Shown here: one piece after another, positions 25,009 through 57,674 of the stretch
How positions within the stretch are numbered: the first letter of the stretch is position 1
Layout of the letters: every line of letters begins with the position of its first letter
Assembly (NCBI GenBank): GCA_038867615.1
Contig: JAWBYA010000001.1
Span: forward strand, 577,473 to 641,472
Source of the DNA: Sulfolobales archaeon
GTDB lineage: Archaea > Thermoproteota > Thermoprotei_A > Sulfolobales > AG1
Direction of reading: 5' to 3'
Length of the DNA stretch: 64,000 nucleotides
Program-made: the position numbers and the translations under genes
Notes under the pieces: generated by a model
The model's input: the letters and a program-made list of their open reading frames with translations, nothing else
Database searches by the model: none
What the model was told of the DNA's origin: nothing

Positions 25009-27073
25009 ATTCATAGTTGAGTAATAATTGATAAAGGTTTCTAACGGTTTTGTCAGCGTTCTCCAGTTTGATCGCCTCGGCTATGGATAGGTCTAGCCTA
25101 TATCTATACTCTTTATCTAGCTGATCCCAGAAAGGTGGTAAGGGTTTATCTAGTATGTCGCTAACATTTTTACACAGCTTGGAGGCAGTCTCATCATCGA
25201 TTATGCTTATGTTGATTATGGGTAGCTCAAGGTAATCGCTTTCCAGGAATCTTGTCCATGTCTCCGAGATTTTTCTACCCAGCAGTATGAGTGTTGAGAT
25301 GAAAATCGCGCTATTGAACCATCCTGTGAGGATCTTGGAAGCCTTTTCATCTATATATTTTATTATATAGAAGTTCTTCGAAGCAGCTATTTTCTCGCTG
25401 GTATAGTTTGCGAAAACTCCTCTTCGCTTGAAGGTCAAATCCACTTTATCTGGTATGAATATGTGTCCAAACGGTTTTTTAGTCATCATCTGTTTATAAA
25501 CATGGCTATACCAGTATTTCCCATAGGAGTTTATAGCCGGCTTTGCGGTACCAGACTTAACTCCCCACTCAATATAATGTTGCAAGTCCTCTGGCAAGCT
25601 CTTAAGCTCTAGCGGGGGGATAGAGAGCATATATGTATCTGCTTTTGCTTCAATTGTATAACTATAAAGGCTTGGCTTACGAAGGGTCCTTACTAAGAAC
25701 TCCCTGCTTATGGTTAATCTAAGCCTGCTCTCAATATTCTCTATTTCTACAAATCCGTTATTCTCTCTTAAAATGCGCCAATACTTATTAGGTAGGAAAA
25801 AGAATTCGGGTCCATACATCTCAACCCCTCTGATAATGCTTTTTCTACCCAGCACATCGTTCCAGTATCCCAGCGTACCGTTTTTTAAACCCTGCCTAAA
25901 TATGTCGACCACGATATTTCTAAGCTCATCCTCCCCAAAGAGTGCTAGCCAGTTAATATCAAGGAATCGTGGTAGATCGTTAATATTGAATAGGTTTACT
26001 TTATGATAGGGTTCGCGCCTATCCATGACAGCCTTGGCAAGCTCTTCAGGATTGTCATCTAATTCGGCAAACACTGTTAGCCTGTTCTTATCCTTATCAG
26101 GCTTTTTAACAGCTATTAAAATAACTTCTTTAAACCCACTATCCTCAGAGAACGATGGTCTAGATGAATGCTCAACCATGCCGAGAACCTCATAGCTTTC
26201 TTTTAATAAAGACTTGTACCCCTTTCCATATATTGTGTAGAATGTGGATGCTGGTAGGACAGATACTATCAAGCCGCCTTTATTTAATGCGTAGTCAGAT
26301 AGGAACATAGAGAGTGTTTGGAGGCTGACTTCCCCTCTAGTAATGTATCTCCCATAACCCAGCATATTTATAACCCTAAGTATGTAGTTCCGATAATTCC
26401 CCTCTAGATATTTCCACCTAGTGAAAGGCGGGTTTGTTAAAATAATATCTGCTCTTGGTAGTTTAGCCTGAGCAAGTCGAGGCATAGCTTCGGGTATAAC
26501 TTTAAACGCGTCTCCCACAATCACGGTGATAAGATCCCTCCTCCCCCCTGTTGCGGAGAGTAGTGATGCGTATGCAACTAAAGCTGGTAAAGGTAGAGGC
26601 TCGATACCCCAAACCTTCTGTAGCCTTTCAACCCCGATTTTTCTTATTGCCGCTGTTAGGGTTCGTGCTGAGCCGAGGAAAGGGTCTGCGAGAACTACCT
26701 TATCTTTTTTTAAATTCCTCAGATAGTGCTGTGTTACGGAGGACATGAAATGAGTACCCGAATCAATAGTATAATAAGCAGCAAACCTCTTCCTCACAGC
26801 CTGAGGTATAAGCTTTTGAACTTGAACCTGACAATCACTAATAGAGATATTTGGCTTTGACAATTCCGACTTAATAGCTCTAATCTCTTCAGGGTTTAAC
26901 CTTTCTAGGTTAGGGAGTATCGGAGCATCCCAAGTTCTCAATGATTCCAGATCTCCGTCCTTGTTGTATAGCATTATAACATTTAAACTAGCTATGAGGA
27001 TCCTAAAACTCTCAGGAATAGCAGGCTCTATGCCCAGCTTCTGAAGTATACTATTCAGCTTTACACCCACCAC
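24983..27073 (-). CDS. DNA amino-methyltransferase (N6-adenine/N4-cytosine), gamma-class order
   Basis: YYT, DPFLGSA (motif I), GDAF, TNPPF (motif IV), long C-terminal TRD-like region; AT-rich; overlaps the REase 3' end. Confidence 0.85.
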   Translation of the reverse strand: MVGVKLNSILQKLGIEPAIPESFRILIASLNVIMLYNKDGDLESLRTWDAPILPNLERLNPEEIRAIKSELSKPNISISDCQVQVQKLIPQAVRKRFAAYYTIDSGTHFMSSVTQHYLRNLKKDKVVLADPFLGSARTLTAAIRKIGVERLQKVWGIEPLPLPALVAYASLLSATGGRRDLITVIVGDAFKVIPEAMPRLAQAKLPRADIILTNPPFTRWKYLEGNYRNYILRVINMLGYGRYITRGEVSLQTLSMFLSDYALNKGGLIVSVLPASTFYTIYGKGYKSLLKESYEVLGMVEHSSRPSFSEDSGFKEVILIAVKKPDKDKNRLTVFAELDDNPEELAKAVMDRREPYHKVNLFNINDLPRFLDINWLALFGEDELRNIVVDIFRQGLKNGTLGYWNDVLGRKSIIRGVEMYGPEFFFLPNKYWRILRENNGFVEIENIESRLRLTISREFLVRTLRKPSLYSYTIEAKADTYMLSIPPLELKSLPEDLQHYIEWGVKSGTAKPAINSYGKYWYSHVYKQMMTKKPFGHIFIPDKVDLTFKRRGVFANYTSEKIAASKNFYIIKYIDEKASKILTGWFNSAIFISTLILLGRKISETWTRFLESDYLELPIINISIIDDETASKLCKNVSDILDKPLPPFWDQLDKEYRYRLDLSIAEAIKLENADKTVRNLYQLLLNYESSIREHKT

Positions 27074-27487
27074 ACTCCCTACTATTATATTTATGCTTAT
27101 TTAGGTTTTCTACCTATTTCCCTAATCTCTTAAGCCATTTTTCTCACAATCTCTCCATGCTTTTAATCCTAGTAGATCAACTTTAACCTTATCTTACTTA
27201 TAAGCTATTACGCAATTGACGATCCATAATGTTAATGATCGAAACAGCTCTGACCTTGATGAAGGTAGGAGTGATAGAGGCTGATGTGTTGAGATATTAG
27301 CAGCTATGAAACTCGAAACCATAATGGAACAGGCTTTAATGTTATCGACAAACCGTCGTTAATAGTGAAAGTAATGATCGCTGGGAAGCTTGGTGAATAA
27401 TAAAGAGAGCTATAGTAGATCTTGTGGTAAGGATTTTAGACATGTGAGCGCTTTATTACCAAGCATGCCTTCTTATTTTAATGGGCT

Positions 27488-27976
27488 ATGAATGAGCTGC
27501 CAAAAACAATAGCTGAGGAGCTTGCTAGAAAGGCTAGCAGCGTGGGGATCTCTATTGAGGAGTATTTATTTGACTTACTCTTCAGAGATCTAGATCCTGT
27601 TGCAAGCGCTGAAAAATATATAATGGGTGCTCAGCAGCTCCTCGAACAGGCGGAGCAGGAGTTAAGGGCAGGAGATCTTAGGCAGGCCTCTGAGAAGATC
27701 TGGGGGGCGTGTGCGCTCAGCATAAAAGCCCACGCCCTGGCTAAGAAGGGGCTGAGGCTCGAAACCCATGGGGATCTATGGGTTTATAAGAACGAGGTTG
27801 CCAGGAAGCTTGGTGACTGGGTTAGGGTTGCATTCATGATGGCCGATTCAATGCGTAGGAACTCTTACGAGGATATAGCCACTGGAGAGGATATCGAGAG
27901 TGCACTTAGGGAGGTTAGAAACCTTGTTAACAAGATCTCTGAAACATTAAGCCTCAACCGTAGTAGATCATCATAG
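27488..27976 (+). CDS. PaREP1 family protein (HEPN-like)
   Basis: GDLRQASEKIWGA...IKA..A...HGDLW. Confidence 0.88.
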   Translation: MNELPKTIAEELARKASSVGISIEEYLFDLLFRDLDPVASAEKYIMGAQQLLEQAEQELRAGDLRQASEKIWGACALSIKAHALAKKGLRLETHGDLWVYKNEVARKLGDWVRVAFMMADSMRRNSYEDIATGEDIESALREVRNLVNKISETLSLNRSRSS

Positions 27977-28202
27977 CTTTATTACAGATCAGCTTACTCC
28001 TTTCTAAATTACATATCTTCGGCTTAGGATGATCCTTATGTATTGATCTCTAAAACATTCTCGAAGCCCGTGAGGCTGAGGACTAAGCAACCAGATCAAA
28101 TAATACTAGTTGCTATGAAGCTGAACCATGATCTGGGTAGGGTTTTGAAGCCCTACATTTAAGGTGGAATAAAAAGGTGTTCGGGCTAGAGAGGCGTTAG
28201 GT

Positions 28203-28445
28203 TTACTCGATAGCGATCAGAGTTACTGTTTTCTCAACACCCTCAATCTTATGTATACTCCCAGCCACCACGTCTTTAAGATCCCTAAGCTCTCCAACCT
28301 CGATCTTGGCTATAACATCATACTCCCCGGTTACTGTGTATGCTTCTTTAACACCACTAATACCCCTGATCCTCTGCACGACATCGCCCGCCTTGCCGAT
28401 AGAGGTTTTAATCAAAACATACGCTACTACTGGGAAGAGCACCAC
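28203..28445 (-). CDS. Lrp/AsnC ligand-binding (RAM) domain protein
   Basis: AYVLI, GVKEAYTVTGEYDVIAKI, GVEKTVTLI; no HTH. Confidence 0.88.
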   Translation of the reverse strand: MVLFPVVAYVLIKTSIGKAGDVVQRIRGISGVKEAYTVTGEYDVIAKIEVGELRDLKDVVAGSIHKIEGVEKTVTLIAIE

Positions 28446-28626
28446 CCTATAGCATCGGCTAACAAGCCCTATATTTACCCTATAATATCTTTGCTGCGTA
28501 GGTCGCGGATAGCTAACATGTATTTATAATCATAGCTCTGCTTTAACGTAGTTTATTATAATGTATTTCGAAACCTCTGACTATTTTTCCCAGCCTTACG
28601 GCTCTCGCTATCTCCTCTCCGAGTTC

Positions 28627-28650
28627 TTTTCAATTCTATAGTAGATCGAT
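28627..28650 (-). repeat. Solitary CRISPR repeat-like unit
   Basis: TTTCAATTCTATAGTAGATC (28628-28647) equals 20 contiguous nt of the array repeat. Confidence 0.7.
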
Positions 28651-28749
28651 TTTGTCCTCATATCTATTATATTAGGCTTATAAGCGTAGATCTCGTTTTA
28701 GTCTATGTTTTTGATATGACGATCCGCTGTAAAACTGAGAGTCTATATA

Positions 28750-30093
28750 CTATATAGGTCTTGTGAATCCCCATTTCTCGAGGGCTCTTCTGAGTTCCAC
28801 GTGCTCTTCTGCGTATTGGTCTAGGGGGATTCCTTTGGATATGGCTTCTAGGGCTTGTCTTACGGCCGCAGCGCCTGCTCTGGGGCCGTCTGGGTGTCCT
28901 ACGACTCCTCCTCCGACTTGTATGACTATATCGATGCCCATGTGTTTAACTACCTCTGGTAGTGTTCCTGGGTGTAGTCCTCCCGATGCTACTGGGGCTG
29001 CTGGTTTTATGTGGTAGAATGGCTGGGGCATTCTAACCGGGTCGTCTGGTGTGGGTTTGAAGATCTCTTCTCTGAGGATTGAGCAGTTCCTGATCACGTC
29101 TATTGTTTTTGCTTCCAGCTTCCCAACCTCTGGTGTTCCGACGTGTAGCTGGTCTACGCCAACGATTCTGAGGAGTTTGGCGAGTGTGAACATCGATATC
29201 CCGTGATCCGGGTTTCTGGTGAATGCTGCGTGCATTGCTCTGTGGGCGTGTATCGCTAACCCATACTCCTCCGCGAGATCCCTGATATAGGTTAGTGAGG
29301 ACCAGCCTGCCACTACCACGTCGACCATGATGTATGGGTTTCCATAGTCTGCGACAAGCTTGATCCTCCTAGCCATCTCTCTAGCATCTGCAGTCACGTT
29401 GGCGAGCCATGCCTTCCTCTCCCCAGTCTCCCTCTCAGCCCTCTCTATAGCCTTCATAATACTCCTAGCCCTGGTCTCGAACTTGCAGTAGCTGGGGCTT
29501 GCCAGGTTCTCATCATCCTTAACATAGTCAAGCCCTCCAGAGAGTATCTCGTAGGATAGCCTCTCAACCTCCTCCGGGGAATAGCCGACCTTGGGCTTTG
29601 GCACGGTGCCAACAATAGGCCTCCCATAGATCCTGAATATCTCCCTAACACCCCTCAAACCCCTAAACGGGCCCTTAAAATGCTCCAGAAACCTCCTCGG
29701 AAGATATATATCCTCAACCCTCAGCCACCTAACCCTCCTCATACCAAACACATTACCAGCAACAGAGGCCAGGAACGCCGGCATATTACCCTCCTCAAAC
29801 AGCTCAACGGGATAGGCAACCCTAACCAGATAACCCCCACCGCCCAGGTCTAGAAACTCATACGCTCTCCCCATAAGCCTGGAAAGCCTGGCCTCATCAT
29901 ACCAAGTATAAAGGGTGGTCCAGGTCCCAACACTACTCTCAGCAGCAACACCCCCAGCCGTATCCTCAACCGTAAACCCGGCAGCTGGGGTTACTTTAAA
30001 GCTAACGATCACATGATCCTCTGGATCCGGTTTAAAGCTCTTATCAATAAACAAAGGATATGGCTCGAAATCCTGTGACACGAGTTCCACCAA
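28750..30093 (-). CDS. rbcL: Ribulose-bisphosphate carboxylase, archaeal form III
   Basis: AAESSVGTW, GNVFGM, KPKVG, GGLDYVKDDE catalytic motif, HAHRAMHAA, GKL, SGGLHPG, GGGVVGHPDG. Confidence 0.95.
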   Translation of the reverse strand: MVELVSQDFEPYPLFIDKSFKPDPEDHVIVSFKVTPAAGFTVEDTAGGVAAESSVGTWTTLYTWYDEARLSRLMGRAYEFLDLGGGGYLVRVAYPVELFEEGNMPAFLASVAGNVFGMRRVRWLRVEDIYLPRRFLEHFKGPFRGLRGVREIFRIYGRPIVGTVPKPKVGYSPEEVERLSYEILSGGLDYVKDDENLASPSYCKFETRARSIMKAIERAERETGERKAWLANVTADAREMARRIKLVADYGNPYIMVDVVVAGWSSLTYIRDLAEEYGLAIHAHRAMHAAFTRNPDHGISMFTLAKLLRIVGVDQLHVGTPEVGKLEAKTIDVIRNCSILREEIFKPTPDDPVRMPQPFYHIKPAAPVASGGLHPGTLPEVVKHMGIDIVIQVGGGVVGHPDGPRAGAAAVRQALEAISKGIPLDQYAEEHVELRRALEKWGFTRPI

Positions 30094-30381
30094 TAGTTTA
30101 ATCCGTATAACGCAATATAACCCAGCTAGATCCTACTATCTAGAATCGAGGACAGGGCTATAATGTCCCGCTATAGGACTTCGAGACGCTCCCTATAGTG
30201 GTTGATATAGTTCCCAACGATCCTGCATCGATGATCTGGTGTTGAGGAAAGGCTTCTCAGATCTAACCGCTATAGTTCTAACCATCACCGCTCTCTCCCC
30301 CTTGGGGAGAGCATTGCGAACTGTTAGGGCTATCAACCCTCAATGCTACGCCTCGTTTTGGCTTCTACTCTTTAGCTTGAA

Positions 30382-30405
30382 GTAGATCTGCTATAGAATT
30401 GAAGA
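30382..30405 (+). repeat. Solitary CRISPR repeat-like unit (trailer-variant type)
   Basis: GTAGATCTGCTATAGAATTGAAGA matches 21/24 of GAAGATCTGCTATAGAATTGAAAG. Confidence 0.7.
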
Positions 30406-30418
30406 GCATGTTTTAGGC

Positions 30419-30925
30419 TTAGAGTGGTCCCAGCCATGGTGCTATTACCTTGTAGTTCTTCTCAATGCTATTTCTTCTCCACTCCTCCTCAGCCCACCAA
30501 GGTATTCTTGGGTTTCTGACTATGTCGTAGTAGTCGTAGGGCTTTATATCGAGTACGGGGCTTCCTGTCCACGCGTCCAGGCCCTTAACCCTGAGCCTGT
30601 TCTCCTCGATTGATAGGAGCTCTACTACTGTTAATGCTATCGGGTTTGGTCTTGGTGGGAATCTTGTTGCGAAGATCCCTACTTCTGGGTATCTTTCTAT
30701 ACCCCACGGCTTGAGCCTGGGTATGTATCTCTTCTCCTCATGCATCCAGTATAGAATAATAATATGTGAGTAATCCTCTAATCCTTTAAGGGCTTCGACA
30801 TACTCATCAAAGATCCTGATGATAGATATCTTCTCATAACGAGACCTAGGCCTCTGGGGCTCTCCAGGCCTTGGAAGACCATCCTCAACAACACCTATAG
30901 GTTTAAAACATATTGGCTCAGACAG
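30419..30925 (-). CDS. trmO: tRNA t6A37 N6-methyltransferase TrmO/TsaA family
   Basis: ICFKPIGVV, ALKGLEDYSHIIILYWMH, GIFATRFPPRPNPIAL, GLDAWTGSPVLDIKPY; frame extends 60 codons beyond the ORF track to a CTG after GGTGG. Confidence 0.88.
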   Translation of the reverse strand: MSEPICFKPIGVVEDGLPRPGEPQRPRSRYEKISIIRIFDEYVEALKGLEDYSHIIILYWMHEEKRYIPRLKPWGIERYPEVGIFATRFPPRPNPIALTVVELLSIEENRLRVKGLDAWTGSPVLDIKPYDYYDIVRNPRIPWWAEEEWRRNSIEKNYKVIAPWLGPL

Positions 30926-31180
30926 TAAGAACCACCATCTATATAGAGAAACCAGGAACTAATATCTAGCCAGATCGACTTAGCATGGCCCTGCGTGGTT
31001 TAGCTTCTGCTTAAACTTTACCGCTATCTCCAGTCTGAACAGGATCTTAATTCCTAGCCATTATCCATAATATTATAATATAATGAAAATCCCTATTTAA
31101 CATTCTTGTGGTTTCCCTTTAGCTGGTGAAGATCCCTTATAGAGCTGAAAGATATTTTCTAATAATACGTATGTTTATGC

Positions 31181-31579
31181 TTATAATACGTATGCTGAAA
31201 CGTTAACATATAGAACTCCCCTAATGCTTCTGAGATCCCTCAATATAGCCCCTATCATCTCCCAATAGCTTTCAACAACCGCTATGTTGAGGCAGAGGGT
31301 ATCCCTGAGGATCTGATGGTAGAATGCCTTAATGCTCTGCTGGTTTTCATGTATAACCTCTAGTATCTTTCTATCCGAGGCCTTGTATATGCTGTGATCG
31401 CTTAGGACTGTTATAATGAAAATACCTCTTCCGGCTTTCATGGATACATCGTAGGCTTCGAGCATCCTCCTAACAGCTTCTCTAACAAGCTCCGACCTTC
31501 CTGTGAAGCCTAGCTTGCTTACTGCCTCGTCAACCTTCTTGAGCAGATGATCTGGTATTGAGACACTCACTATAACCAA
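31181..31579 (-). CDS. NikR/CopG-type ribbon-helix-helix regulator
   Basis: IVSVSIPDHLL..VD....GFTGRSELVREAVR plus ACT-like C-terminal domain with His/Cys. Confidence 0.85.
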   Translation of the reverse strand: MVIVSVSIPDHLLKKVDEAVSKLGFTGRSELVREAVRRMLEAYDVSMKAGRGIFIITVLSDHSIYKASDRKILEVIHENQQSIKAFYHQILRDTLCLNIAVVESYWEMIGAILRDLRSIRGVLYVNVSAYVL

Positions 31580-31699
31580 GCTTCCAACACCTTATTAACC
31601 TCTGCTAATGTGGATTAATAAAGATTAATAATAATTCTTTAGGGCGTTAACAGTTAAGGTTATTAATTTACTTTTCCGCGTTGATCGGAGGAGTTTAAA

Positions 31700-33511
31700 T
31701 TGCGAGAGAAAGGATCTAGACTGCTAATATGGATAGCTTTAACCCTGGCACCCTCCCTCGCAGGCGTAGTATCATCTATAGCTTTCGAGCCCCTGCTCCC
31801 CCCTGTTTACCGAGCGTTTCTCCTCCTCCTACCCACATTATATCTATGGTACCTATTCCTCCTGGATCTTTTAAGGGAAAGGCATTTTAGCGGAGAATAT
31901 GTCCTTATGGGTCTTGTAGGTCTGGTCACGCTAATCCATGGCTTCTATTTTGAGGGCCTCATACTCATGCTACTCTACTCCCTAGCCGAGGTTATCGAGG
32001 AGGCTGCTGAGCGGTATGCGAGAAGAAAGCTCGATACCCTCTATAGACTTGTACCCTCCAAAGCCCTCGTAGAAAAGGATGGTTTAATAGAGAGCGTTGA
32101 GGCTAGCAAGCTAAAGCCCGGCGATGTAGTGGTTGTGAGGGTTGGTGAGGGCGTCCCAGCCGATGGAGTAAGCATCGGTTCGGGTCTTGTGAACACCTCC
32201 CTGGTAACTGGGGAGCCCTACCCGGTTGCTGTGAATCCGGGGGACTTCATTGCTAGCGGCTATATAAACGTTGGCAGGGCTCCTCTAAAAGTTAGGGTTT
32301 TGAGATCTCCAAGCGAGTCTACGCTTCAAAGGGTTATCAGGCTCGCGATGGAGGCTTTGGAGGAGAAGAGCCGGGTTGAGAGGATAGTTGAGAAGCTTAT
32401 GAAGCCATGGACTGCGGTTGCGTTATCCTCGTTCGCCATAGTCTACATGATCCTAGACCCCCTGAGAGCCATACCCATATTAGTAGTAGCATGCCCCTCA
32501 GCCTTCATAATAACCTCGGCTTCCGCAACAGCATACTCAATAGCGGTTCTAGCCAGCAGGGGCGTGGTTGTCAGAGGGGGTAGCGTGCTTGAGAAGATAT
32601 CCGAGATCGATACCATAGTTCTGGATAAAACCGGAACTATAACTATCATAGGATCCCTAGAGGTTTCAAGAATAAAAACCCCAGCTGGGCTGGGCGAGGA
32701 GGAGTTTAAAGCCATAACAGCCTCGCTAGCAGCAGCTAGCACGCACCCAATATCCAGGACTCTAGCACAGATATCGAAAACAAGGGTTGGTGTTAAAAAC
32801 GTTGTAGAAATCCCGGGAAGAGGTGTTAAAGGAGTGGTGGATGGATTAGAAGTAATAATAGGTAATAGGGAGATGATGCTAGACCACGGCCTCAAAGTAG
32901 TTGGAGAATGCAGCGAGGAGGAAACAGTTGTCTATGTAGCTGTAAACGGCTCGGCAGGCCATATATGCCTTAAAGAGAGCATAGATCCTGCAGCCGCCCA
33001 GATCCTCAGAACAGGAGGCTACGAGCTCGTTATAGCTAGTGGGGATAGAGAGCAGAGGGTTAAAGCAGTAGCTAAAGCCCTTAGAATCGAAAAATACTAC
33101 TCAAACCTAAGCCCAGAGGATAAAATAACGCTGGTTAGAAACCTCAAAGCTAAGGGCTCAAAAGTCATGGTAGTCGGAGACGGTGTCAACGATATAGCAG
33201 CCATGGCGGCCGCAGATGCAGGGGTAGCGGTGGGCAATATAGATGCCGTAGTCTCGACGGCCGATAGCGTTCTACTTAGAGGGGTTAGACAGTTACCCCT
33301 ACTACTAAAAGCAGCAAAAACCTATACCAAGACATTAAAAATAGCGCTAGCAACCCCGGTACTGATAAAAACTATAGCCCTAACAGGAGGACTCGCGGGA
33401 GCATTACCCCTATGGCTAGTAGCCCTACTAGGAGACGATGGAGCAACAATAGCGGGGCTCCTAACATCAACAACTCTTATAGCTTCCAACATCCAAAAGC
33501 GTGTATCGTAA
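31700..33511 (+). CDS. Heavy-metal P1B-type ATPase
   Basis: TGE, ACPSA, DKTGT, THP, GDGVND; no N-terminal metal-binding domain. Confidence 0.92.
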   Translation: MREKGSRLLIWIALTLAPSLAGVVSSIAFEPLLPPVYRAFLLLLPTLYLWYLFLLDLLRERHFSGEYVLMGLVGLVTLIHGFYFEGLILMLLYSLAEVIEEAAERYARRKLDTLYRLVPSKALVEKDGLIESVEASKLKPGDVVVVRVGEGVPADGVSIGSGLVNTSLVTGEPYPVAVNPGDFIASGYINVGRAPLKVRVLRSPSESTLQRVIRLAMEALEEKSRVERIVEKLMKPWTAVALSSFAIVYMILDPLRAIPILVVACPSAFIITSASATAYSIAVLASRGVVVRGGSVLEKISEIDTIVLDKTGTITIIGSLEVSRIKTPAGLGEEEFKAITASLAAASTHPISRTLAQISKTRVGVKNVVEIPGRGVKGVVDGLEVIIGNREMMLDHGLKVVGECSEEETVVYVAVNGSAGHICLKESIDPAAAQILRTGGYELVIASGDREQRVKAVAKALRIEKYYSNLSPEDKITLVRNLKAKGSKVMVVGDGVNDIAAMAAADAGVAVGNIDAVVSTADSVLLRGVRQLPLLLKAAKTYTKTLKIALATPVLIKTIALTGGLAGALPLWLVALLGDDGATIAGLLTSTTLIASNIQKRVS

Positions 33512-33769
33512 AAAACAGGATCTTTTATAACCTGGAACCCCAGATCCAAAGCCTAAGCTTAGCACGCCAGCCTCGACTAAGCTATAGCCCGCTTTTAACG
33601 TTAGTAAGTAAATATTGCCAGAATTAAGTTGAGGATTTAAATCTCCTAATATCTATTAGCTCTCTTTAAGCTCGGTATAATGCGGTCGAAAGTATATTCC
33701 TAGCCTGGTCGGGTTTTTGCTCTAACTCTAGAGATGTGGTTGAGGATCTTTTAACATTTAAATATATCC

Positions 33770-49269: not shown

Positions 49270-49406
49270 GTGTTCTCGGCTAGAAAGAGACGTTTGCTAG
49301 TGATCTTATCCGTGTTGGTGTTATCAGCATTAATGATACCTATTATCGCACCTATGCTGTTAAAAGCTCCTTCCCCAGGTGTTCCTAGTGCTCCTGGAAA
49401 GATCGT
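49270..49406 (+). pseudogene. 5' fragment of a signal-anchored protein gene running into the terminal repeat
   Basis: MFSARKRRLLVILSVLVLSALMIPIIAPMLLKAPSPGVPSAPGKIV, then repeat sequence. Confidence 0.4.
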
Positions 49407-52400
49407 CTTTCAATTCTATAGCAGATCTTCCTGGATAAAAATCGGGGCGAGAAAAGTAAGGCTATACTGTCTCCTTTCAATTCTATAGCAGATCTTCTTC
49501 AAGCATACACAAGAACCAAAAAAGCATTCTATGCATCTTTCAATTCTATAGCAGATCTTCTAAGACCTTGGGAAGGGAAAGATCTCTTTAGGATCGAGAT
49601 CTTTCAATTCTATAGCAGATCTTCCACGTATTGCGTGTGCACTGACTTTAACCGCGCTTACTGAGGTCTTTCAATTCTATAGCAGATCTTCACACGGTGG
49701 TTTGGTTTAGATCCGGTGATCCGGGGTTTACTTTCAATTCTATAGCAGATCTTCATATGTAGGCGGATAGCTGATAAGATTAACGATGTGTTTGCGCTTT
49801 CAATTCTATAGCAGATCTTCACTAGTCCCCCCTATGCAGATTCAAGCAGTAGTGAAAGTAAGACTTTCAATTCTATAGTAGATCTTCTAATACATTTGGT
49901 AGATTTCAAGTGCTTCTGCTAGAATGTCACCTTTCAATTCTATAGTAGATCTTCCTACGGCTACAAATGTTAGCCTTGGCTATCATATTACTTCCTTTCA
50001 ATTCTATAGTAGATCTTCAGGGCTTATAGGAAGCATAGGATCTGGGCTGGGAGGTGCGGTAGCCTTTCAATTCTATAGTAGATCTTCCCCCGGCCCCACC
50101 CCCCCACCACACCCCCAACCCCGGCCTTTCAATTCTATAGTAGATCTTCGGTATGACGATCTTGCTGAGAAGCTTTTGAAGGTTGGTGTTCTTTCAATTC
50201 TATAGTAGATCTTCTATGTTTTTTCGAAGGTTGGTGAGGCGCCGTATCTGGCTCTTTCAATTCTATAGTAGATCTTCGGATCTAGAATCTGTATAGATAT
50301 AGACGCACTCTGTATATCTTTCAATTCTATAGTAGATCTTCAGGGCTGGTGGTCCGCAGGTCCACAGGTCCGCAGTGTGGGCTTTCAATTCTATAGTAGA
50401 TCTTCGCGGGGTTTTGCTGGGGTCTCGGGTGTTACCCCCCTTTGTCTTTCAATTCTATAGTAGATCTTCCCGATGTCTGTGCCCTGATGCTTGTTACGAG
50501 GCTTGTGTTCTTTCAATTCTATAGTAGATCTTCTTAACAGTAGCAGATGTCGCTGAGGCAGAGGCCTGGGTTGCCCCTTTCAATTCTATAGTAGATCTTC
50601 AGGCTAGCTGGATTTGTGATCACAGGCGTAGCTACATATACCTCTTTCAATTCTATAGTAGATCTTCCCGCCGTGGCCCGTGAACATGTAGTGATGATCG
50701 GGCCACCCTTTCAATTCTATAGTAGATCTTCGAGCGATACTCAACCCACGGAGACCCCGAGGCCCTGTTAACTTTCAATTCTATAGTAGATCTTCTACAG
50801 GGCTGCTAGATATCTTACTAGGGCGCTCTCACGCTTTCAATTCTATAGTAGATCTTCTGGATACACTGGCTATAGGCACATCCTTCCAGTGTTTGATCTT
50901 TCAATTCTATAGTAGATCTTCGAGATAAGCTGTATGTGATCGTTATGGCGTTAGTAATAGTGCCAACTTTCAATTCTATAGTAGATCTTCCCACGCAATG
51001 AAGCTATAATCACACTGAGCGAGTTGAATGATACTTTCAATTCTATAGTAGATCTTCAGAAGAAGCAACACTATACGCTAACATAGGGGATCTCCAGCTT
51101 TCAATTCTATAGTAGATCTTCTTGATGAATGCTATTGCTACTGATATACAGAAATTGGCAGAGCTTTCAATTCTATAGTAGATCTTCGGGATTTCTCACT
51201 GGAGGTGGTGGGGGTGGCTTGAACCTGCTTTCAATTCTATAGTAGATCTTCTTAAGAAAATGGATAGGGAAACCGCACTAAAAGAGTGTCTTTCAATTCT
51301 ATAGTAGATCTTCCTCTCCCAACCACTCCCCACCAAACTCAAAGACGTGCCTTTCAATTCTATAGTAGATCTTCTCCACCTTTACAAGGCATACTCTCTA
51401 AAGTTTACGGCTTACACTTTCAATTCTATAGTAGATCTTCTATAATGCCGAGCCAGTTCCTTGATTCCTCGACACGCCATATCCTTTCAATTCTATAGTA
51501 GATCTTCCCTTAGCGTGGTGTGGAGACCCGCTCTTAGATGCTTGGTCTTTCAATTCTATAGTAGATCTTCTTGGTGCTCTAGTAGCAGCTCTAGCTAGGG
51601 TAGCTGGTAGAACTTTCAATTCTATAGTAGATCTTCCGAGGCAGACACCGATGAACCCGGCCCCTGCCCAAGATCTTTCAATTCTATAGTAGATCTTCAC
51701 GGGGCGGAAACATATATCATCACATGGGACGACTTTCAATTCTATAGTAGATCTTCGCTCCCAAAGAGATGCGACGAGGAGCCCGGCATATGTATAGACT
51801 TTCAATTCTATAGTAGATCTTCAGGTATTTCGATGCCTCGTCCTCCAATGTTGAGAGCGATATATGCTTTCAATTCTATAGTAGATCTTCTGCTGAGACA
51901 AACACCCCACCAACCATAGAATAGCAGACTTTCAATTCTATAGTAGATCTTCAATCTACCAACAACTACGGACATATACCCACCTATATCTTTCAATTCT
52001 ATAGTAGATCTTCTGGTCTCACCATTGCCGATGCGAAGGCGTATCTCTCGAGCTTTCAATTCTATAGTAGATCTTCTATATCATTGGGAGGGTTGTCATG
52101 CCGCTTAAGGAGCCTGAGCTTTCAATTCTATAGTAGATCTTCGAAGATAAAGGAGCTGCTGAGCCCAGTCCTTGTGAAGATCTGAGCTTTCAATTCTATA
52201 GTAGATCTTCTCGCGTATTACAGGGACTATGGTCTGAGGCTCGTCTGTAGGACTTTCAATTCTATAGTAGATCTTCAGATATTCTCCAGGCATGTGAGCA
52301 GGGCCTCGGCGACTCTTTCAATTCTATAGTAGATCTTCGGGGGTCGCTGAAGCTGTCGGCAGCTGGTATGGTTGCTGTCTTTCAATTCTATAGTAGATCT

Positions 52401-55400
52401 TCGCGACGATAATTGCGATTGTGGTGGTTGCAGCGATCATACTCTTTCAATTCTATAGTAGATCTTCCTTACAATCTTATGCTCTTCCTCGACGCCACCT
52501 TCTATAACTTTCAATTCTATAGTAGATCTTCAAGGCTTTGAAGCAGGTGCTTCAAACACCAAGTATAAAGCTTTCAATTCTATAGTAGATCTTCGAGATC
52601 GAGAGGATGCTTGGGAGGAGGAGGCTTGCGGCTGCTTTCAATTCTATAGTAGATCTTCGAGGTTGTTGACTATGCACCTCTCGAGTGGGCATATATATCT
52701 TTCAATTCTATAGTAGATCTTCGCTAGAAATGGTATCCTTATCAGAAATATGTAGCTTTTTCTTTCAATTCTATAGTAGATCTTCGAAATCAACTGAGAG
52801 TATATCGAGTGATGCTGATACCTCTGCTTTCAATTCTATAGTAGATCTTCTCTTCCGGGGGATCCCGCCGGGGCGGATCGTATTACGCCTTCTTTCAATT
52901 CTATAGTAGATCTTCTGGCGAGGGTGCTGGGGAGCCGCTCAGGCCAGAAGATGTTCTTTCAATTCTATAGTAGATCTTCAGTTCGTAAACATACACCGGT
53001 TTAACTTAGTGAGTGCTATCTTTCAATTCTATAGTAGATCTTCACAGACCTCTTTATAGCATCCGCAACGGCTAGGGCCTCCTCTTTCAATTCTATAGTA
53101 GATCTTCCTGGGTATGTTTGGGTTGTTGAAGAGCGTTGGATATATTGTTCTTTCAATTCTATAGTAGATCTTCATGATTAAGGATAGCAATGGTGTGAGA
53201 GTTGATAGAGTGTTGCTTTCAATTCTATAGTAGATCTTCAGACAACAATAGCTAAAAAGCTATATGAATACTGCTATGCTCTTTCAATTCTATAGTAGAT
53301 CTTCCCCTGGCGTCAGTGTCGTGTTACTCGTAGTCCTTACACTTTCAATTCTATAGTAGATCTTCAATACCGCTTGACCAATACCGAGAGAAACTAGCAC
53401 GCATGCTTTCAATTCTATAGTAGATCTTCGCTAGATAGACCATACCTAACACTAGTAGACCTTACCCCAGTAAGCTTTCAATTCTATAGTAGATCTTCCC
53501 TTATTATATAATATACGCTGGAAAACGGCATGTTTAGCGTCTCCTTTCAATTCTATAGTAGATCTTCATTGCACGGTCTATTGCCGCGTCCAAGTCCTCC
53601 GGGTCTTGCTTTCAATTCTATAGTAGATCTTCTCTCTGCACAGTGGTCTCGCCGCTGTCTTCGCCGAGAAAGCTTTCAATTCTATAGTAGATCTTCAGGG
53701 GCATTGCCCCGAGGCAGCTGAAATGCCCTAAGTGTACTTTCAATTCTATAGTAGATCTTCGAGGCAGGTAAAGAGCTACATTGACTGGGCTGTTAGGAAC
53801 ACCTCTTTCAATTCTATAGTAGATCTTCTGTGTTTGTTGGTGTGAGGATCCCTGTGAAGATCAGGTCGCTTTCAATTCTATAGTAGATCTTCGGCTCCCC
53901 CCAGCGGAGTTTGCTCCGCCGGGTAGCGGCCTTTCAATTCTATAGTAGATCTTCAAGACCCAGAGAGAACCGCTACAATTGTTGTAGGTGGTCTAGACTT
54001 TCAATTCTATAGTAGATCTTCTCAGAGTGAGCCCTGTCAGAGTGGTTTGAGAAGTTGGAGAACTTTCAATTCTATAGTAGATCTTCTATAAGCCCAGCAC
54101 TGGAGACAGAGGGGTATAGAAACAACACTTTCAATTCTATAGTAGATCTTCCCTGGGTTGTGGCTGGTGGGCAGGGTCTGCAGCTTGTTTTTCTTTCAAT
54201 TCTATAGTAGATCTTCATCGAGGATCCCATTATTGCTTTAGAGTTAGCGGATATGCTCTTTCAATTCTATAGTAGATCTTCTGATCTTCGAGAGCAAGAT
54301 AATGGATAGGATAAAGAATCTTTCAATTCTATAGTAGATCTTCATGGCGATAGGCCTCTTCATAATACTTATAAAGATATATAGCCTTTCAATTCTATAG
54401 TAGATCTTCCGAGATCGCAAGCGAGATCGACGACATCTTACAGGAGTTAACTTTCAATTCTATAGTAGATCTTCTTAATAGCCTCTCCTCCTATTATAAG
54501 CTCTCTTTGGTATTCTTTCAATTCTATAGTAGATCTTCAAGCACTAAGTATCTACGAAGACTTCTACAAGACTACACTTTCAATTCTATAGTAGATCTTC
54601 ACACGTCCCTGTTTTCATAGAACCTCTCTGGTATGAGCTCCACTTTCAATTCTATAGTAGATCTTCAATATGGTTTTGTTTTAGAACCTTATAAGCATAA
54701 CGGCCTTCTTTCAATTCTATAGTAGATCTTCATGGATCGAGATCCTAATGAACATGATAATGAACATGACCTAGACTTTCAATTCTATAGTAGATCTTCC
54801 AGGGAATAATCCTTGGCTGTGCTCGGGGTGTCGGTCTTGCACTTTCAATTCTATAGTAGATCTTCCGGGGTTTTTACTCATGCTCAACCCCAATCCTAGA
54901 GTAGATCCCTTTCAATTCTATAGTAGATCTTCAAAGCAACAGAGGTGGAGCTTGAAGCAGAACAAGAATCTGATCTTTCAATTCTATAGTAGATCTTCAT
55001 AGGGTTATTGCCGCGATTAATTATGTAATTAGAGTTGATCTTTCAATTCTATAGTAGATCTTCGGTTGTGGTGCTTGCAGTGTTACGGGTGGCGGTAGTG
55101 TCCTTTCAATTCTATAGTAGATCTTCCTAAGCTTGAGCAGATATTAATCGAGTTACGGAAACTAAATAGTCTTTCAATTCTATAGTAGATCTTCTCCACT
55201 ACTCTTACCTTGATATAGAAGGTTATCGGGGTTGCTTTCAATTCTATAGTAGATCTTCCCATCAACTCCAGATATTCCGGTAAAAAAAGAAAGGAAGCCT
55301 CTTTCAATTCTATAGTAGATCTTCAATGCATGGTTGAGGAGAAATGTTTAGAGCCTTTCTCTAAGACTTTCAATTCTATAGTAGATCTTCCAGAAGGATT

Positions 55401-57289
55401 TGATGTTGGTAGATCATACGTTATTCTCTTTCTCTTTCAATTCTATAGTAGATCTTCGCAATTACTAGTACGGGGAGAAACATGGTGGCCAGGATAGCTT
55501 TCAATTCTATAGTAGATCTTCTCAATAGATTATCTTTCTCGTGGAACGAAACATTGAGGACCGCTTTCAATTCTATAGTAGATCTTCATGTGTCTTATCA
55601 CGTTTATTCGGCACTGCTCCTCGTGCCTTTCAATTCTATAGTAGATCTTCCGTCACAACCGCAAGCCTCTCCAAAAGCCTAGCCTCTGGGACTTTCAATT
55701 CTATAGTAGATCTTCAGGTCAGGAGTTGTTGCCCGGGTTGCCACTAAAAAACAAACTTTCAATTCTATAGTAGATCTTCAAGAGAGGTGGTTAGAATGAG
55801 CTTTCCACCCCAAGGCGGAGGGCAGAGCCTTTCAATTCTATAGTAGATCTTCAAGCGGACTAGGAGGAGTATACCTATATATATCAAAGAAAATCTTTCA
55901 ATTCTATAGTAGATCTTCCGAGGCCCTGGACAGATCCGGCATCTTCCCCAAGGGTGTTCTTTCAATTCTATAGTAGATCTTCTGGAGGATACCGTATAGT
56001 GAAGTTGAGAGGATTCTTAACTTTCAATTCTATAGTAGATCTTCGTTGGTACTCGGCAGAGGCTCCGTATACACCACAGAACCCTCTTTCAATTCTATAG
56101 TAGATCTTCCAAATCTCTCCCTGAGTGTCTCCTATATGTATCCCCCATCTTTCAATTCTATAGTAGATCTTCCACTTGTAGCAGCAATAGGTATCGAGCT
56201 TAGCAAGGATACTTTCAATTCTATAGTAGATCTTCGCTGTCACAACCTCGTGATTAGCCTGGAAACATATCCTGGACTTTCAATTCTATAGTAGATCTTC
56301 TTGGTGGCGCTGTTGCCCAGTATCTAAAGAAGGTTGTTGACTTTCAATTCTATAGTAGATCTTCAGGAATACTTCATACACTTCTTAATATGGTGGAAAC
56401 AAAACAACATCTTTCAATTCTATAGTAGATCTTCCGAATACTTTGATGATGCAATTGTGATAGAACTATATGAGTGCTTTCAATTCTATAGTAGATCTTC
56501 GAGTCAATAGCAAAGTTCCTGTTGGAGTCATACCCATACTACTTTCAATTCTATAGTAGATCTTCTATGACTTCATCCTCCCCCCCTCCCCCAGGGGTTA
56601 CCTTTTTACTTTCAATTCTATAGTAGATCTTCGATAACTTGGGGAATAAACTTTGCTGGGTGCATGTAAAGGCTCTTTCAATTCTATAGTAGATCTTCAA
56701 CCTTCTACCAATAATTATTATTGGTGATAGTATGGCGAGACTTTCAATTCTATAGTAGATCTTCGCAACAAACACAATCTACATACTCAACAAGAACTGG
56801 AGAGCTTTCAATTCTATAGTAGATCTTCGCCTTCTGCCCCCTACCATCCGCAGCCCTATAGATACTCTCACTTTCAATTCTATAGTAGATCTTCGGGAGA
56901 CTGAGGCGAGGGTCAGGCAGATCGCGAGGATAATAGAGTCTACTTTCAATTCTATAGTAGATCTTCGCTGAGAAGTCTATCAGAGGAGCTCGACACAGTA
57001 GTGGCCACTTTCAATTCTATAGTAGATCTTCTGTTTATGTAATCGCGATAATGCGTGCAATAGCGAGTGTTTCTTTCAATTCTATAGTAGATCTTCTCTG
57101 GGATGTGGATGCGTGGTTTGTCATCTTTTCTCTTTCTCTTTCAATTCTATAGTAGATCTTCGAACCCAAGCTTGCCTCTTGTTCCCTTTGGCAGCAACGT
57201 CCTTTCAATTCTATAGTAGATCTTCCAGCCCCGTATCATCCTACGATGGTGTTGCACTTGTGGACCTTTCAATTCTATAGTAGATCTTC
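49407..57289 (-). CRISPR. CRISPR array, 24-bp repeat GAAGATCTACTATAGAATTGAAAG, about 122 repeats and 121 spacers of about 34-49 bp
   Basis: CTTTCAATTCTATAGTAGATCTTC recurs about every 64 bp on + strand; ATTGAAAG end, leader at right and variant repeats at left give minus orientation. Confidence 0.99.
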
Positions 57290-57674
57290 CGATCTAGCTA
57301 CGGATCTTTTTTGATATTTATAGCTATGTAGGGGGGCTTTGCCCCCGAGGGGGCCTGTCTCTATAGGAGATCGTCTCGCACGGGATCGCTGTATGGGATG
57401 CTCAGTTCTATAGGAGATCGACTATACCATTATTTCTATGCTTATCTAGCTTATAAGCATAGATTCCGGAATTGATCCTTGTTTTTGATGATAGTAATGC
57501 TTATTAGCCTCAATGTTTTTCGATCTTCTTTTCCCTGGGATCTTTTGGGATTTCTTCTCAGATCTTTTTTCTCCACTGGATCTTTTTTGTTGTGTTGTTT
57601 ATAAATTTTTCGGATCTTTTTTGATCATGTGGATCTTTCTCTCTACTCTATCCCTGTTGATTCTGGGAGTCTCT
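57290..57674 (-). promoter_or_regulatory. CRISPR leader with BRE/TATA-like AAAAATTTATAA (57599-57610), palindrome 57436-57462 and degenerate repeat-like motifs
   Basis: Non-coding, adjacent to the non-variant end of the array, conserved in second copy at 63734-64000. Confidence 0.85.

Follow-up and report, generated by a model that had tools for sequence, protein, structure and literature searches.

The locus studied here raises the question of why a RuBisCO gene in the chromosome of a Sulfolobales archaeon should stand beside isolated copies of a CRISPR repeat, when the CRISPR array itself lies 19.0 kb away. A sequence-only reading of the window (the whole stretch of 64,000 nt that was analysed) had described two solitary repeat units, inverted with respect to each other, that bracket rbcL. 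Our answer, to which we assign a probability of about 0.62, is that rbcL was inserted, or less likely deleted, by recombination within a solitary repeat unit.

Unit 1 (28627..28650, minus strand; sense ATCGATCTACTATAGAATTGAAAA) reaches a weight-matrix score of 38.4 bits. Its core at 28628-28647 (plus strand, TTTCAATTCTATAGTAGATC) equals the array repeat over 20/20 contiguous nt, lies 102 nt past the rbcL stop, and reads in crRNA sense (...ATTGAAA) on the minus strand, the same strand as rbcL. Unit 2 (30382..30405, plus strand; GTAGATCTGCTATAGAATTGAAGA; 33.9 bits) carries the trailer-type G variant, and it is from its end that the distance of 19.0 kb to the array is counted. Both units are present where the sequence-only reading had placed them and on the strands it gave, and the 20/20 core match of unit 1 was reproduced; the 21/24 match claimed for unit 2 holds against the trailer variant but not against the main array repeat, for which a manual count gives 20/24. 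The G variant had been said to be limited, within the array, to the seven trailer repeats (49405-49820, C on the plus strand), and this is so; outside the array it also occurs in solitary units, for example at C7:43773, C17:8567 and C17:8622 (contig and position). The picture of two inverted units around rbcL, correct as to the existence of both, had overlooked a degenerate unit at 28718..28741 (plus strand; GACGATCCGCTGTAAAACTGAGAG; 16.9 bits). This left direct copy has the same orientation as unit 2, the right direct copy, and matches it at 14/18 core positions, the two differing at 6-7/21 positions. A fourth unit, also degenerate, is located at 31128..31151 (plus strand; GAAGATCCCTTATAGAGCTGAAAG; 16.5 bits). 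In repeat identity, units 1 and 2 are what would be expected of members of a CRISPR array; the three or more regularly spaced direct repeats (~60-70 nt) with unique spacers that an array comprises are absent here, the four units being spaced 67, 1640 and 722 nt apart in mixed orientations (-, +, +, +), and the locus was rejected as an array. A possible further unit-like stretch was seen upstream of rbcL at ~30127-30148, the alignment of which needs two 1-nt insertions.

A scan of the window for the 20-mer with up to three mismatches returned 124 matches, namely the 122 repeats of the array and units 1 and 2; dinucleotide shuffles of the window gave a mean of 0.03. That such matches could be expected from the enrichment of CTATAG and AGATC in this genome had been named as what would refute the earlier reading. 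CTATAG and AGATCT are over-represented, 4.1-fold and 5.7-fold respectively, but under an order-5 Markov model with the arrays masked the expected copies of the two 20-mers per genome are 7.5e-6 and 8.6e-6, below 1e-5 in either case, and this refutation fails. In genome-wide scans, ~40-50 solitary CRISPR-repeat-like units were found in the 2.2-Mb genome (28-contig assembly); at the weight-matrix threshold of 14 bits there were 44 real matches outside the arrays versus 0 in the locally shuffled genome. Units 1 and 2 are real, and chance is excluded as their origin. The solitary units are distributed on contigs C1-C8, C10, C17 and C27. Since the units of the RuBisCO locus are only two of ~40-50 that stand beside unrelated genes, the association with RuBisCO is probably incidental, and so, probably, is the apparent signal of "RuBisCO regulation".

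The array (49405..57290, minus strand) contains 122 repeats with the sense sequence GAAGATCTACTATAGAATTGAAAG at a start-to-start spacing of ~58-73 nt, and its leader extends from 57291 onward. The distal part of the leader (57399..57460, minus strand) holds a module in which GCTTATAAGC is followed, after 29 nt, by the degenerate unit GTCGATCTCCTATAGAACTGAGCA (29.5 bits). A similar arrangement is found beside rbcL, where unit 1 and its partner unit are separated by a leader-like promoter spacer (28651..28717) with the palindromic TATA-like box GCTTATAAGC at 28676-28685, ~25-35 nt from the outward-facing unit on either side. The local alignment between the unit 1 module and the distal leader scores 32, which was reached by none of 1000 shuffles and none of 2000 random genomic segments; judged by this alignment, the outward-facing unit pair around the palindromic TATA box is homologous to the distal leader of the array. 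The module of TATA box, spacer and unit occurs in the distal leader of a mini-array as well. The units are thus best explained as members of a genus-wide family of solitary units that would derive from CRISPR leader and repeat DNA. As for the cas genes, csa3 (37155-37787), cas1, cas4 and csa1 are in the window, and the genome encodes a type I-A gene set and two Cas6 proteins, one in an operon on C11 and one at C1:283248-284219, that match Pfam Cas6_N and CRISPR_Cas6 above cut-off, while a search for a type III signature with one model, that of Cmr2 (TIGR02577), gave no match. The nearest cas gene is csa3, 6.7 kb from unit 2, and the genes flanking the units are not cas genes.

The relation between the units and rbcL became apparent from a comparison of the genome under study (G000) with two syntenic congeners, G002 and G003 (85-96% identity). 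On the left, G003 (contig C15) aligns to window positions 27836-28738 and G002 (contig C67) from 28027, at 85-87% identity; on the right, positions 30385-33558 align at 91-96% identity in both. In both congeners the left and right blocks overlap by 18 nt, and therefore the rbcL segment is missing there and a single unit occupies the site. The missing segment is a cassette of 1640 nt (28742..30381, minus strand), in which the ORF at 28750-30093 is accompanied by 8 nt on its 3' side and by ~290 nt of DNA upstream. At the junction, the sequence is GATCCGCTGTAGAATTGAAGGG for G003 and GATCCGCTGTGGAATTGAAGAG for G002, against GATCCGCTGTAAAACTGAGAG for the left copy and GATCTGCTATAGAATTGAAGAG for the right copy in G000. 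The single unit of the congeners is a hybrid, with a 5' half equal to that of the left copy and a 3' half equal to that of the right copy: every difference between the left copy and the relatives' unit lies 3' of position 11, and those of the right copy lie 5' of position 11, save for one position that is also variable between G002 and G003. The idea that the units might be scars of a repeat-mediated capture of rbcL is supported by the comparison of rbcL synteny that had been proposed, since two congeners lack exactly the rbcL segment and carry a hybrid unit at the empty site. The geometry proposed for the capture has to be revised, since the recombining pair would be the direct copies at 28718-28741 and 30382-30405, not the two inverted units. 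Unit 1 has the same plus-strand reading (TTTTCAATTCTATAGTAGATCGA) in the three genomes, whose flanks differ by 9-15%; being kept in relatives without rbcL, it predates the cassette on this comparison. Immediately 5' of the unit at 31128, G002 and G003 carry an additional 92 nt, which include a TATA-like box.

The filled arrangement is bridged at both junctions by contigs from independent runs (X8 records 23 and 25, X12 record 4) and is no assembly chimera. A contig joined without the cassette was found in none of four DNA runs, but the contigs of these are fragmentary and often end at units, which deprives this negative of weight. A single scan of metagenomes yielded two contigs with the same filled arrangement, at 100% and 98.4% identity, the second of which spans the right-hand junction only.

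The product of the cassette gene matches the Pfam families RuBisCO_large (5.8e-86) and RuBisCO_large_N (1.6e-40), and is assigned to form III by TIGR03326, with 617.8 bits against a curated cut-off of 497.45. The usual partner of archaeal form III RuBisCO is the AMP / pentose-bisphosphate pathway; the AMP phosphorylase model TIGR03327 gave at best 32.1 bits in G000, against a cut-off of 535, and no match near the cut-off was obtained in any of the five congeners either. In GC content (52.2%) rbcL ranks at the 98.4th percentile among 924 long ORFs, and in GC3 at the 90.5th percentile. TIGR03326 matched 11 of 31 genomes, including none of six in genus g2, one of 13 in the family, and none of the five congeners searched, whose completeness of 81-96% makes a missed copy conceivable. 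The sole family copy (in G007) is 56% identical, copies in other families reach 73-74% identity, and the closest RbcL proteins share 86% and 85% amino acid identity. The repeat is absent from all five genomes with the five nearest RbcL loci (80-86% identity). Among 80 related rbcL loci none is flanked by units, the sole match with up to two mismatches being one unit 1.2 kb upstream of rbcL in L088. The search for a donor, a circle junction or another context of the cassette found none, and of 14 genomes G000 alone has the right junction. Within 2 kb, the ORFs encode PaREP1, an AsnC-type domain protein, RbcL, a TrmO-like protein, a NikR-like protein and a P-type ATPase. The TrmO-like ORF (30419..30745, minus strand; 108 aa, covering only positions 49-111 of the 116 of the TrmO_N profile), for which G002 and G003 have a counterpart with 91% identity, is placed between unit 2 and the degenerate unit at 31128. 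A Pfam scan detected no integrase, recombinase or virus gene among the eight flanking ORFs of the window.

These observations can be combined into the following scenario. The older state, as in G002 and G003, would have consisted of two outward-facing units around the palindromic TATA box, that is, of a homologue of the distal array leader. A single reciprocal recombination in the right-hand unit of this module would then have led to the gain or loss of the 1.64-kb rbcL segment. The crossover point would be the central TA of the unit, and therefore the filled genome would have two direct, half-different copies and the empty genomes an exact hybrid. The likeliest direction is an insertion of horizontally acquired DNA that brought its own repeat-like unit, for example as a circle, and the reaction may have been catalysed by the general recombination machinery, acting on short homology, or by a dedicated enzyme. 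The incoming side seems to derive from the array, as positions 30375-30403 (unit 2 with its left flank) match a trailer repeat and the first 7 nt of the adjoining spacer at 28/29 nt. The reverse reaction would be a deletion in the relatives after an earlier gain, which is less parsimonious. However, G002 and G003 are closer to each other at the rbcL site than either is to G000, and the junction is therefore explained equally well by one deletion in the lineage that their loci share. It also counts against our explanation that only ~11 nt of near-identity would be available for homologous recombination, and that no recombinase gene stands beside the cassette. If rbcL did move by recombination within a unit, the units here act as a portable recombination site, any regulation of RuBisCO by them being hypothetical.

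Similar reactions are known from other systems. In repeat-mediated spacer loss, recombination between two direct repeats of an array deletes the intervening DNA and leaves one hybrid repeat. The rbcL locus is like it in the direct copies and in the one hybrid left in the empty allele, but the "spacer" here would be 1640 nt long with a functional gene, and the copies are degenerate and 19-21 kb from the array. The gene cassettes of integrons recombine between attI and attC sites, the latter being hairpins. Likeness to them is found in the single gene, the tight ends (8 nt past the stop), the short imperfect repeats, the adjoining promoter-bearing module and the presence or absence that differs between close strains. 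Unlike integron cassettes, however, this one has no integrase nearby (eight flanking ORFs, Pfam) and repeats that are CRISPR-derived and no attC hairpins, rbcL faces away from the module promoter and has its own upstream region, and only one clean cassette is documented. Solitary repeat units (SRUs) have been described on viruses and other mobile elements, where they include RNA anti-CRISPRs (Faure et al. 2019 via PMC8616872; PMC10651486), and it has been proposed that they let DNA integrate by homologous recombination with resident repeats (PMC8616872). The units at rbcL are likewise lone mimics of the host repeat, and the recombination proposed for SRUs is the reaction that would have occurred here. 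As far as the available accounts go, SRUs are viral or plasmid-borne and have the CRISPR array as their target, whereas here both partners would be solitary units of the chromosome, and the cargo consists of one metabolic gene, beside which neither a viral nor a plasmid gene is found. The units were rejected as SRUs of a mobile element, with no integrase or virus gene among the ORFs within 2 kb.

An alternative that we regard as unlikely, although it would be compatible with recombination, is that the units are transcribed and that Cas6 processes the transcripts to crRNA-like RNAs, which would guide a type I-A or type III effector on rbcL or its neighbours. Standalone repeat-like elements and degenerate mini-arrays are described as sources of regulatory crRNA-like RNAs (CreA/CreTA, CreR, crlRNA, scaRNA; Shmakov et al. 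2023 preprint, PMC10120712; PMC9458426; 10.1101/2023.03.10.532045), which were sought and found in or beside cas loci together with a partially matching, PAM-bearing target (PMC10120712). The survey of standalone elements covered, in its available text, CRISPR-cas neighbourhoods and not whole genomes (PMC10120712). Like these regulators, the units at rbcL are lone units outside an array, with a conserved 3' handle region and a promoter-like box upstream, in a host with a type I system (here a type I-A gene set) and two Cas6 genes. The 20/20 repeat nt of unit 1, identical in three genomes, include most of the ATTGAAAG handle. A TATA-like box stands 28-38 nt upstream of unit 1. The same applies to 12/26 of the solitary units that do not belong to the dispersed-element family, compared with 8.6% of random positions, a control uncorrected for AT-rich intergenic DNA. 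The predicted rightward transcript from the central TATA box would be antisense to the 3' end of rbcL, 8 nt past the left copy. On the other hand, the 44 nt after each of three units gave a best genome match of E = 0.055 (blastn-short; seed-only matches are indistinguishable from chance), and the handle is changed in all three (GAAAA, GAAGA, CTGAGAG). The nearest cas gene is at least 6.7 kb off, unlike the regulators described, which in the available accounts lie inside cas loci; further unlike them, the ~40-50 units here are spread over many contigs by unrelated genes, and none at the rbcL locus is at a cas operon.

The units might instead be putative DNA sites for a repeat- or leader-binding protein (Cbp1-like or Csa3), by which promoters would be tied to the CRISPR system. 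Many units follow a TATA-like hexamer at 24-42 nt, where transcription would be expected to start, the module of box, spacer and unit is shared with the leaders of the main array and the mini-array, and the csa3 gene is within the window. But the genes flanking the units are functionally mixed, and it is variable or mobile DNA, not conserved promoters, with which the units coincide. We consider such a role distinctly unlikely.

Very improbable, in our view, is a duplicative integration that copied its target, by off-target Cas1-Cas2 or by a transposon-like target-site duplication, with later divergence of the copies. In its favour, leader-like promoter, repeat, insert and repeat follow one another as they do around a newly acquired spacer, the window contains cas1, cas4 and csa1, and the left copy adjoins the array-leader homologue. 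However, the insert measures 1640 nt against an array spacing of ~58-73 nt, the 6-7/21 differences between the copies are strictly half-and-half and match the relatives' hybrid, and the 7-nt spacer-like continuation left of unit 2 is unexpected from a target duplication. Against our own explanation it counts that under duplication and later divergence the half-and-half pattern is only moderately improbable: we estimate the odds of the partition at ~1 in 15, and the probability of 4 changes within 10 nt, given the local divergence, at ~0.02. The cassette was also rejected as a spacer product of Cas1-Cas2, given the 1640-nt insert and the non-identical repeats, though a leader-like module is present. 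That the matches are a by-product of composition, or the contig mis-assembled at a short repeat, has next to no probability despite the enriched hexamers and a 28-contig assembly whose public contigs often break at units, as the Markov expectation, both kinds of shuffle and the independent contigs across both junctions all speak against it.

Among the solitary units of the genome, family A comprises 12 units (10 full, 2 partial) on a dispersed 215-nt element; in an unbiased search for this element, the unit was present on only 11 of the 56 copies with the 3' end present. Selection on the family A unit, considered in view of a pairwise identity of 87% versus 67% for the body of the element, was dropped, because the copies had been chosen by presence of the unit and the gap is therefore not evidence of selection. 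In favour of our explanation, further differences between G000 and G003 are likewise located at units, among them the 92-nt indel at 31128 and a three-unit cluster in G000 that occupies the place of 7.9 kb of genes in G003. The synteny of G000 and G003 breaks 2 nt past the unit at C1:450529, and a ~35-kb segment between this unit and that at C1:485790 is found in G000 only. Several unit-associated differences between G000 and G003 are units carried on the mobile element, and there are unit-free indels between these genomes too (e.g. L118 12280-15394). Around a mini-array at C1:487753-487965 a segment is inverted in G002, but a role of units in this inversion was rejected, as no unit is present at the far junction. 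Rfam gave no match in the window at the gathering score, and E-value searches of 14 and 3 loci returned only tRNAs, a fluoride riboswitch and weak matches below threshold, to C/D-box RNAs among others, none of them on units or on the dispersed element.

It is tempting, though doubtful, to extend the explanation to a CRISPR-derived, integron-like system, in which escaped units on leader-derived modules and on the subfamily of the 215-nt element would be genome-wide portable recombination sites that exchange genes or islands between strains, possibly by means of Cas proteins or a repeat-binding factor. If such a system existed, the rbcL cassette would be its clearest product, and the ~35-kb segment specific to G000 and the cluster opposite the 7.9 kb of G003 would be further candidates.

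Solitary CRISPR repeats have already been recognised as decoys on viruses and, inside cas loci, as regulators. Here, dozens of them are dispersed over a chromosome, one at the exact junction of a metabolic gene that was apparently acquired horizontally, and the natural pair of filled and empty alleles with a defined crossover provides a concrete test case. Should recombination at stray repeats occur regularly, CRISPR sequences would not only block gene flow but also promote it, and genes flanked by repeats could be searched for in hyperthermophilic archaea as a sign of recent transfer.

Besides the main CRISPR array (49405-57290; 122 repeats, crRNA sense on the minus strand), which is the only long array in the window, two solitary repeat units beside the form III RuBisCO gene (rbcL, minus-strand ORF 28750-30093) are confirmed as real. 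The array repeat reads CTTTCAATTCTATAGTAGATCTTC on the plus strand and GAAGATCTACTATAGAATTGAAAG in crRNA sense. Its 20-mer, with up to three mismatches, has only two matches outside the array in the window, one at 28628-28647 in minus-strand crRNA sense without mismatch, and one at 30385-30404 on the opposite strand with two mismatches. The sequence-only reading had described the same strands, distances and outward orientation around rbcL, and we agree with it in all three. It would have been refuted had the CTATAG/AGATC enrichment of the genome led one to expect such matches, and this refutation fails. Dinucleotide-shuffled windows contain a mean of 0.03 matches to the 20-mer; both hexamers are indeed enriched, yet under an order-5 Markov (hexamer-aware) model fewer than 1e-5 copies of either 20-mer are expected per whole genome. 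With the arrays masked, CTATAG occurs 5016 times (4.1-fold) and AGATCT 7038 times (5.7-fold), a strong genome-wide over-representation. Palindromic hexamers are more often avoided in genomes, so this excess is unusual; dispersed elements may contribute to it.

The source genome G000 (2.22 Mb in 28 contigs, 46.3% GC), in which the window occupies C1:577473-641472, contains 178 matches to an 18-nt repeat core at up to three mismatches, 38 of them outside the two long arrays, against a calculated chance expectation of about 1.5. In a genome-wide scan with a weight matrix trained on 31 solitary units, 44 non-array sites score at least 14 bits, compared with none in the locally shuffled genome, and 54 score at least 12 bits, compared with two. 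Nine of these 54 fall in the 64-kb window, and four cluster within 2.6 kb, at 28627 (-), 28718 (+), 30382 (+) and 31128 (+). The solitary units have the consensus GTCGATCTACTATAGAATTGAAAG, which departs from the array repeat in the first three bases only. In addition, the array repeat is present in all five other genomes of the genus, and isolated exact 21-mers are among the matches listed for the congeners G003 and G005. The genes adjoining units across the genome are functionally mixed, and solitary units are not special to RuBisCO.

A search of the region 26000-33600 against five congeners found collinear sequence in two close ones, on contig C15 of G003 and on contig C67 of G002. Identity to G003 and G002 is 87% and 85% over 27836-28738 (from 28027 in G002), 91% over 30385-31129 and 96% over 31133-33558. 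In both relatives the first two blocks share 18 nt, and therefore both lack 1664 bp of the source genome, namely one unit copy and the 1640 nt of the rbcL cassette (28742-30381). Their junction starts with unit 1 (28627-28650, minus strand), identical to that of the source genome. Then come 73-75 nt that include the palindrome GGCTTATAAGCG, a single oppositely oriented unit (in G003 GATCCGCTGTAGAATTGAAGGG, in G002 GATCCGCTGTGGAATTGAAGAG) and a TrmO-like gene. At the same position the source genome carries GATCCGCTGTAAAACTGAGAG at 28721-28741, within a degenerate left copy of the unit (28718-28741, plus strand), followed by 8 nt, the rbcL stop and gene, about 290 nt of upstream DNA, and GATCTGCTATAGAATTGAAGAG at 30385-30406, the site of unit 2 (30382-30405, plus strand). 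The single unit of G002 and G003 equals the left copy through position 11 and unit 2 thereafter, a hybrid of exactly the kind that a single reciprocal crossover within the unit's central TA leaves behind. The same crossover is readable both ways, as insertion or as deletion of the rbcL segment.

The comparison of rbcL synteny suggested earlier thus yields two collinear genomes with no cassette and a hybrid unit at its site, which speaks for the idea that the repeats are scars of repeat-mediated capture of rbcL. The geometry proposed for that capture, however, with two inverted units, picked the wrong pair. The older pair, which faces outward, is made up of unit 1 and the left copy; the cassette is bounded by two direct copies, namely the left copy and unit 2. 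The interpretation is therefore partly supported, in that the capture scar holds with its geometry corrected. The TrmO-like ORF (30419-30745, 108 aa) also lies between two direct units, as rbcL does; it covers only positions 49-111 of the 116-position TrmO_N profile, and may therefore be an N-terminally truncated gene remnant.

The main array has its leader to the right of 57290 and a trailer of seven repeats with a G variant at 49408-49817. The distal leader module consists, in order, of GCTTATAAGC, 29 nt and the degenerate unit GTCGATCTCCTATAGAACTGAGCA. Excluding unit 1 itself, the adjacent 98 nt align with the DNA beside this degenerate unit at a score of 32, which was reached by none of 1000 shuffles and none of 2000 random genomic segments; this homology indicates that unit 1 is a copy of a leader module and not a stray array repeat. 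The leader of a mini-array at C1:487753-487965 carries the same module. Meanwhile, unit 2 with its left flank (30375-30403) matches an array trailer repeat and the first 7 nt of the adjoining spacer in 28 of 29 nt, with an estimated chance of roughly 0.01 for 122 repeats and two sides, and the match hints that the DNA that brought rbcL had once passed through an array-like context. Within the main-array leader (57291-57460) there are, besides a G+C-rich hairpin, two degenerate units resembling the repeat, at 57399-57422 and at about 57360-57375, and a second TATA-like box (CTATAAATA) stands about 35 nt upstream of the first repeat; it looks as if a newer promoter had been superimposed on an older leader and repeat. 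The window also holds csa3, cas1, cas4 and csa1 of a type I-A gene set, and two Cas6 genes lie elsewhere in the genome. One of these is a stand-alone gene at C1:283248-284219 (locus L136). The other belongs to a second type I-A-like gene set (Cas7, Cas5, Cas3, HD, Cas6) on contig C11, which adjoins a second array of 17 repeats, each five mismatches from the main repeat (C11:15505-16574 and C11:18500-24327, locus L135).

As to the direction of the event, the rubisco_III model finds matches in 11 of 31 genomes, including one of 13 in the family, none of the five congeners (81-96% complete) and none of the six genomes of the neighbouring genus. The sole copy within the family (G007) shares 56% identity with the source protein, and proteins of other families reach 73-74%; the closest relatives in a species-level collection show 86% and 85% identity. 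The CRISPR repeat is absent from all five genomes in which the five nearest RbcL loci (80-86% identity) occur, and the GC content of rbcL lies at the 98th percentile of 924 long ORFs. AMP phosphorylase is the usual partner of form III RuBisCO; no true AMP phosphorylase (TIGR03327) was detected in the source genome or its congeners, the best match in the source genome scoring 32 bits against a cut-off of 535. Taken together, these data favour horizontal acquisition of rbcL and a single insertion in the lineage of the source genome. An earlier gain of rbcL followed by one deletion in the relatives is less likely, although at the rbcL locus G002 and G003 are more alike than either is to the source genome, in contrast to 40 kb elsewhere, where G003 (93-95%) is closer to the source genome than G002 (89-90%). 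We therefore prefer insertion to deletion by about two to one. A mis-join of the assembly at the 20-nt repeat is unlikely, because both cassette junctions are bridged by contigs from other public runs (X8 record 23, 27800-29648, with 2 differences; X8 record 25, 29670-30602; X12 record 4, 29680-30463), and two metagenome contigs also show this order, with identities of 100% and 98.4%, the latter beginning inside rbcL and covering the right-hand junction only.

The units of the genome fall into three groups. In group (a), 12 units (10 full and two partial by the first alignment) stand at the end of a dispersed element about 215 nt long. The element has a TATA-like box and a conserved hairpin (CTGGATGG...CCATCCAG) showing some compensatory changes; examples among loci L001-L012 are C1:114345-114585, 143593-143833, 232903-233143, 239131-239371 and 535911-536151. 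The element body has 77 nhmmer matches in the source genome, and of 56 copies with the 3' end present only 11 finish in a CRISPR repeat unit, the remainder mostly running into another conserved tail; the unit is thus carried by a single subfamily within a larger repeat family, for which an Rfam search gave no match. Group (b) is leader-associated (the main array, a second array end on C27, the mini-array, and a lone leader with repeat on C7), and group (c) comprises all other units, as singles and pairs. Outside group (a), a TATA-like hexamer starts 24-42 nt upstream of 12 of 26 units, compared with 8.6% of random positions, a control not matched to AT-rich intergenic DNA. A MITE-like element of about 350 nt has 66 BLAST matches in the source genome, e.g. 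C1:235500-235864 (L117 6001-6365), and dozens in G002 and G003; one copy splits a copy of the 215-nt element, and G003 and G002 have a further copy inserted immediately to the right of the compared region (about 33560).

The comparisons show units often sitting at differences between the source genome and its relatives, also beyond the rbcL cassette; as a general rule this is a hypothesis. At the 5' edge of the degenerate unit 31128-31151, G002 and G003 have 92 extra nt with a TATA-like box, and the join in the source genome improves the match to the first bases of the repeat (GAAGATC). A 132-nt cluster of two direct units and one inverted unit lies between divergent genes in the source genome (C1:429078-429219; L119 9079-9220) and in G002, and at this site G003 has 7.9 kb with seven ORFs of at least 260 aa and no unit (C15:80496-88382, L134). 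Synteny also breaks 2 nt past the unit at C1:450529, beyond which G003 and G002 lack tens of kb of the source genome, up to the units around C1:485790-488037. The segment between these units, about 35 kb from C1:450555 to about 485900, adjoins a tRNA gene and may be an integrated island; its searched parts, C1:450555-460900 and 478000-485920, have no long match in G003 or G002. At syntenic sites G003 has unrelated DNA in place of three copies of the 215-nt element, which simply reflects a mobile element, and indels without units also occur between the source genome and its relatives.

The mini-array (L118 9754-9966) has a leader, two repeats and one spacer. An ORF of G003 contains a match to this spacer at 36 of 39 nt (C15:109023-109061; L132 2024-2062), preceded by CCT, a CCN-type motif. 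In G003 about 300 nt separate this ORF from the orthologous tRNA gene, and the source genome has no counterpart of the ORF at that place; the spacer looks as if it were directed at DNA of kin or self, beside a deletion. Relative to the source genome, G002 has an inversion (C18:83216-86418, L129) of the segment that holds the mini-array leader and a protoglobin gene; the leader is followed there by a single G-variant repeat, and a unit is present at one end of the inversion, none at the other.

The type I-A gene set and the two Cas6 genes would provide the means for RNA processing or protein binding at the units. In either direction, a transcript predicted from the central TATA box would start roughly at a unit, and in the source genome the rightward one would run antisense into the 3' end of rbcL. 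A genome search with the sequences after the units gave no convincing trans target. Standalone repeats yielding regulatory crRNA-like RNAs are described inside cas loci (PMC10120712; PMC9458426; 10.1101/2023.03.10.532045). In addition, solitary repeat units occur on viruses, and integration via recombination with host repeats has been proposed for them, according to a review (PMC8616872). The rbcL case has the recombination idea in common with the latter; unlike these systems, both recombination partners are chromosomal, dozens of units are dispersed, and a single metabolic gene makes up the cargo. The full-text literature searched, in which few subscription journals are covered, yielded no report of chromosomal gene cassettes flanked by solitary CRISPR repeats. 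The best explanation of the locus, to which we give a probability of about 0.6, is that recombination took place inside a solitary repeat unit of leader origin and most likely brought in an acquired rbcL.
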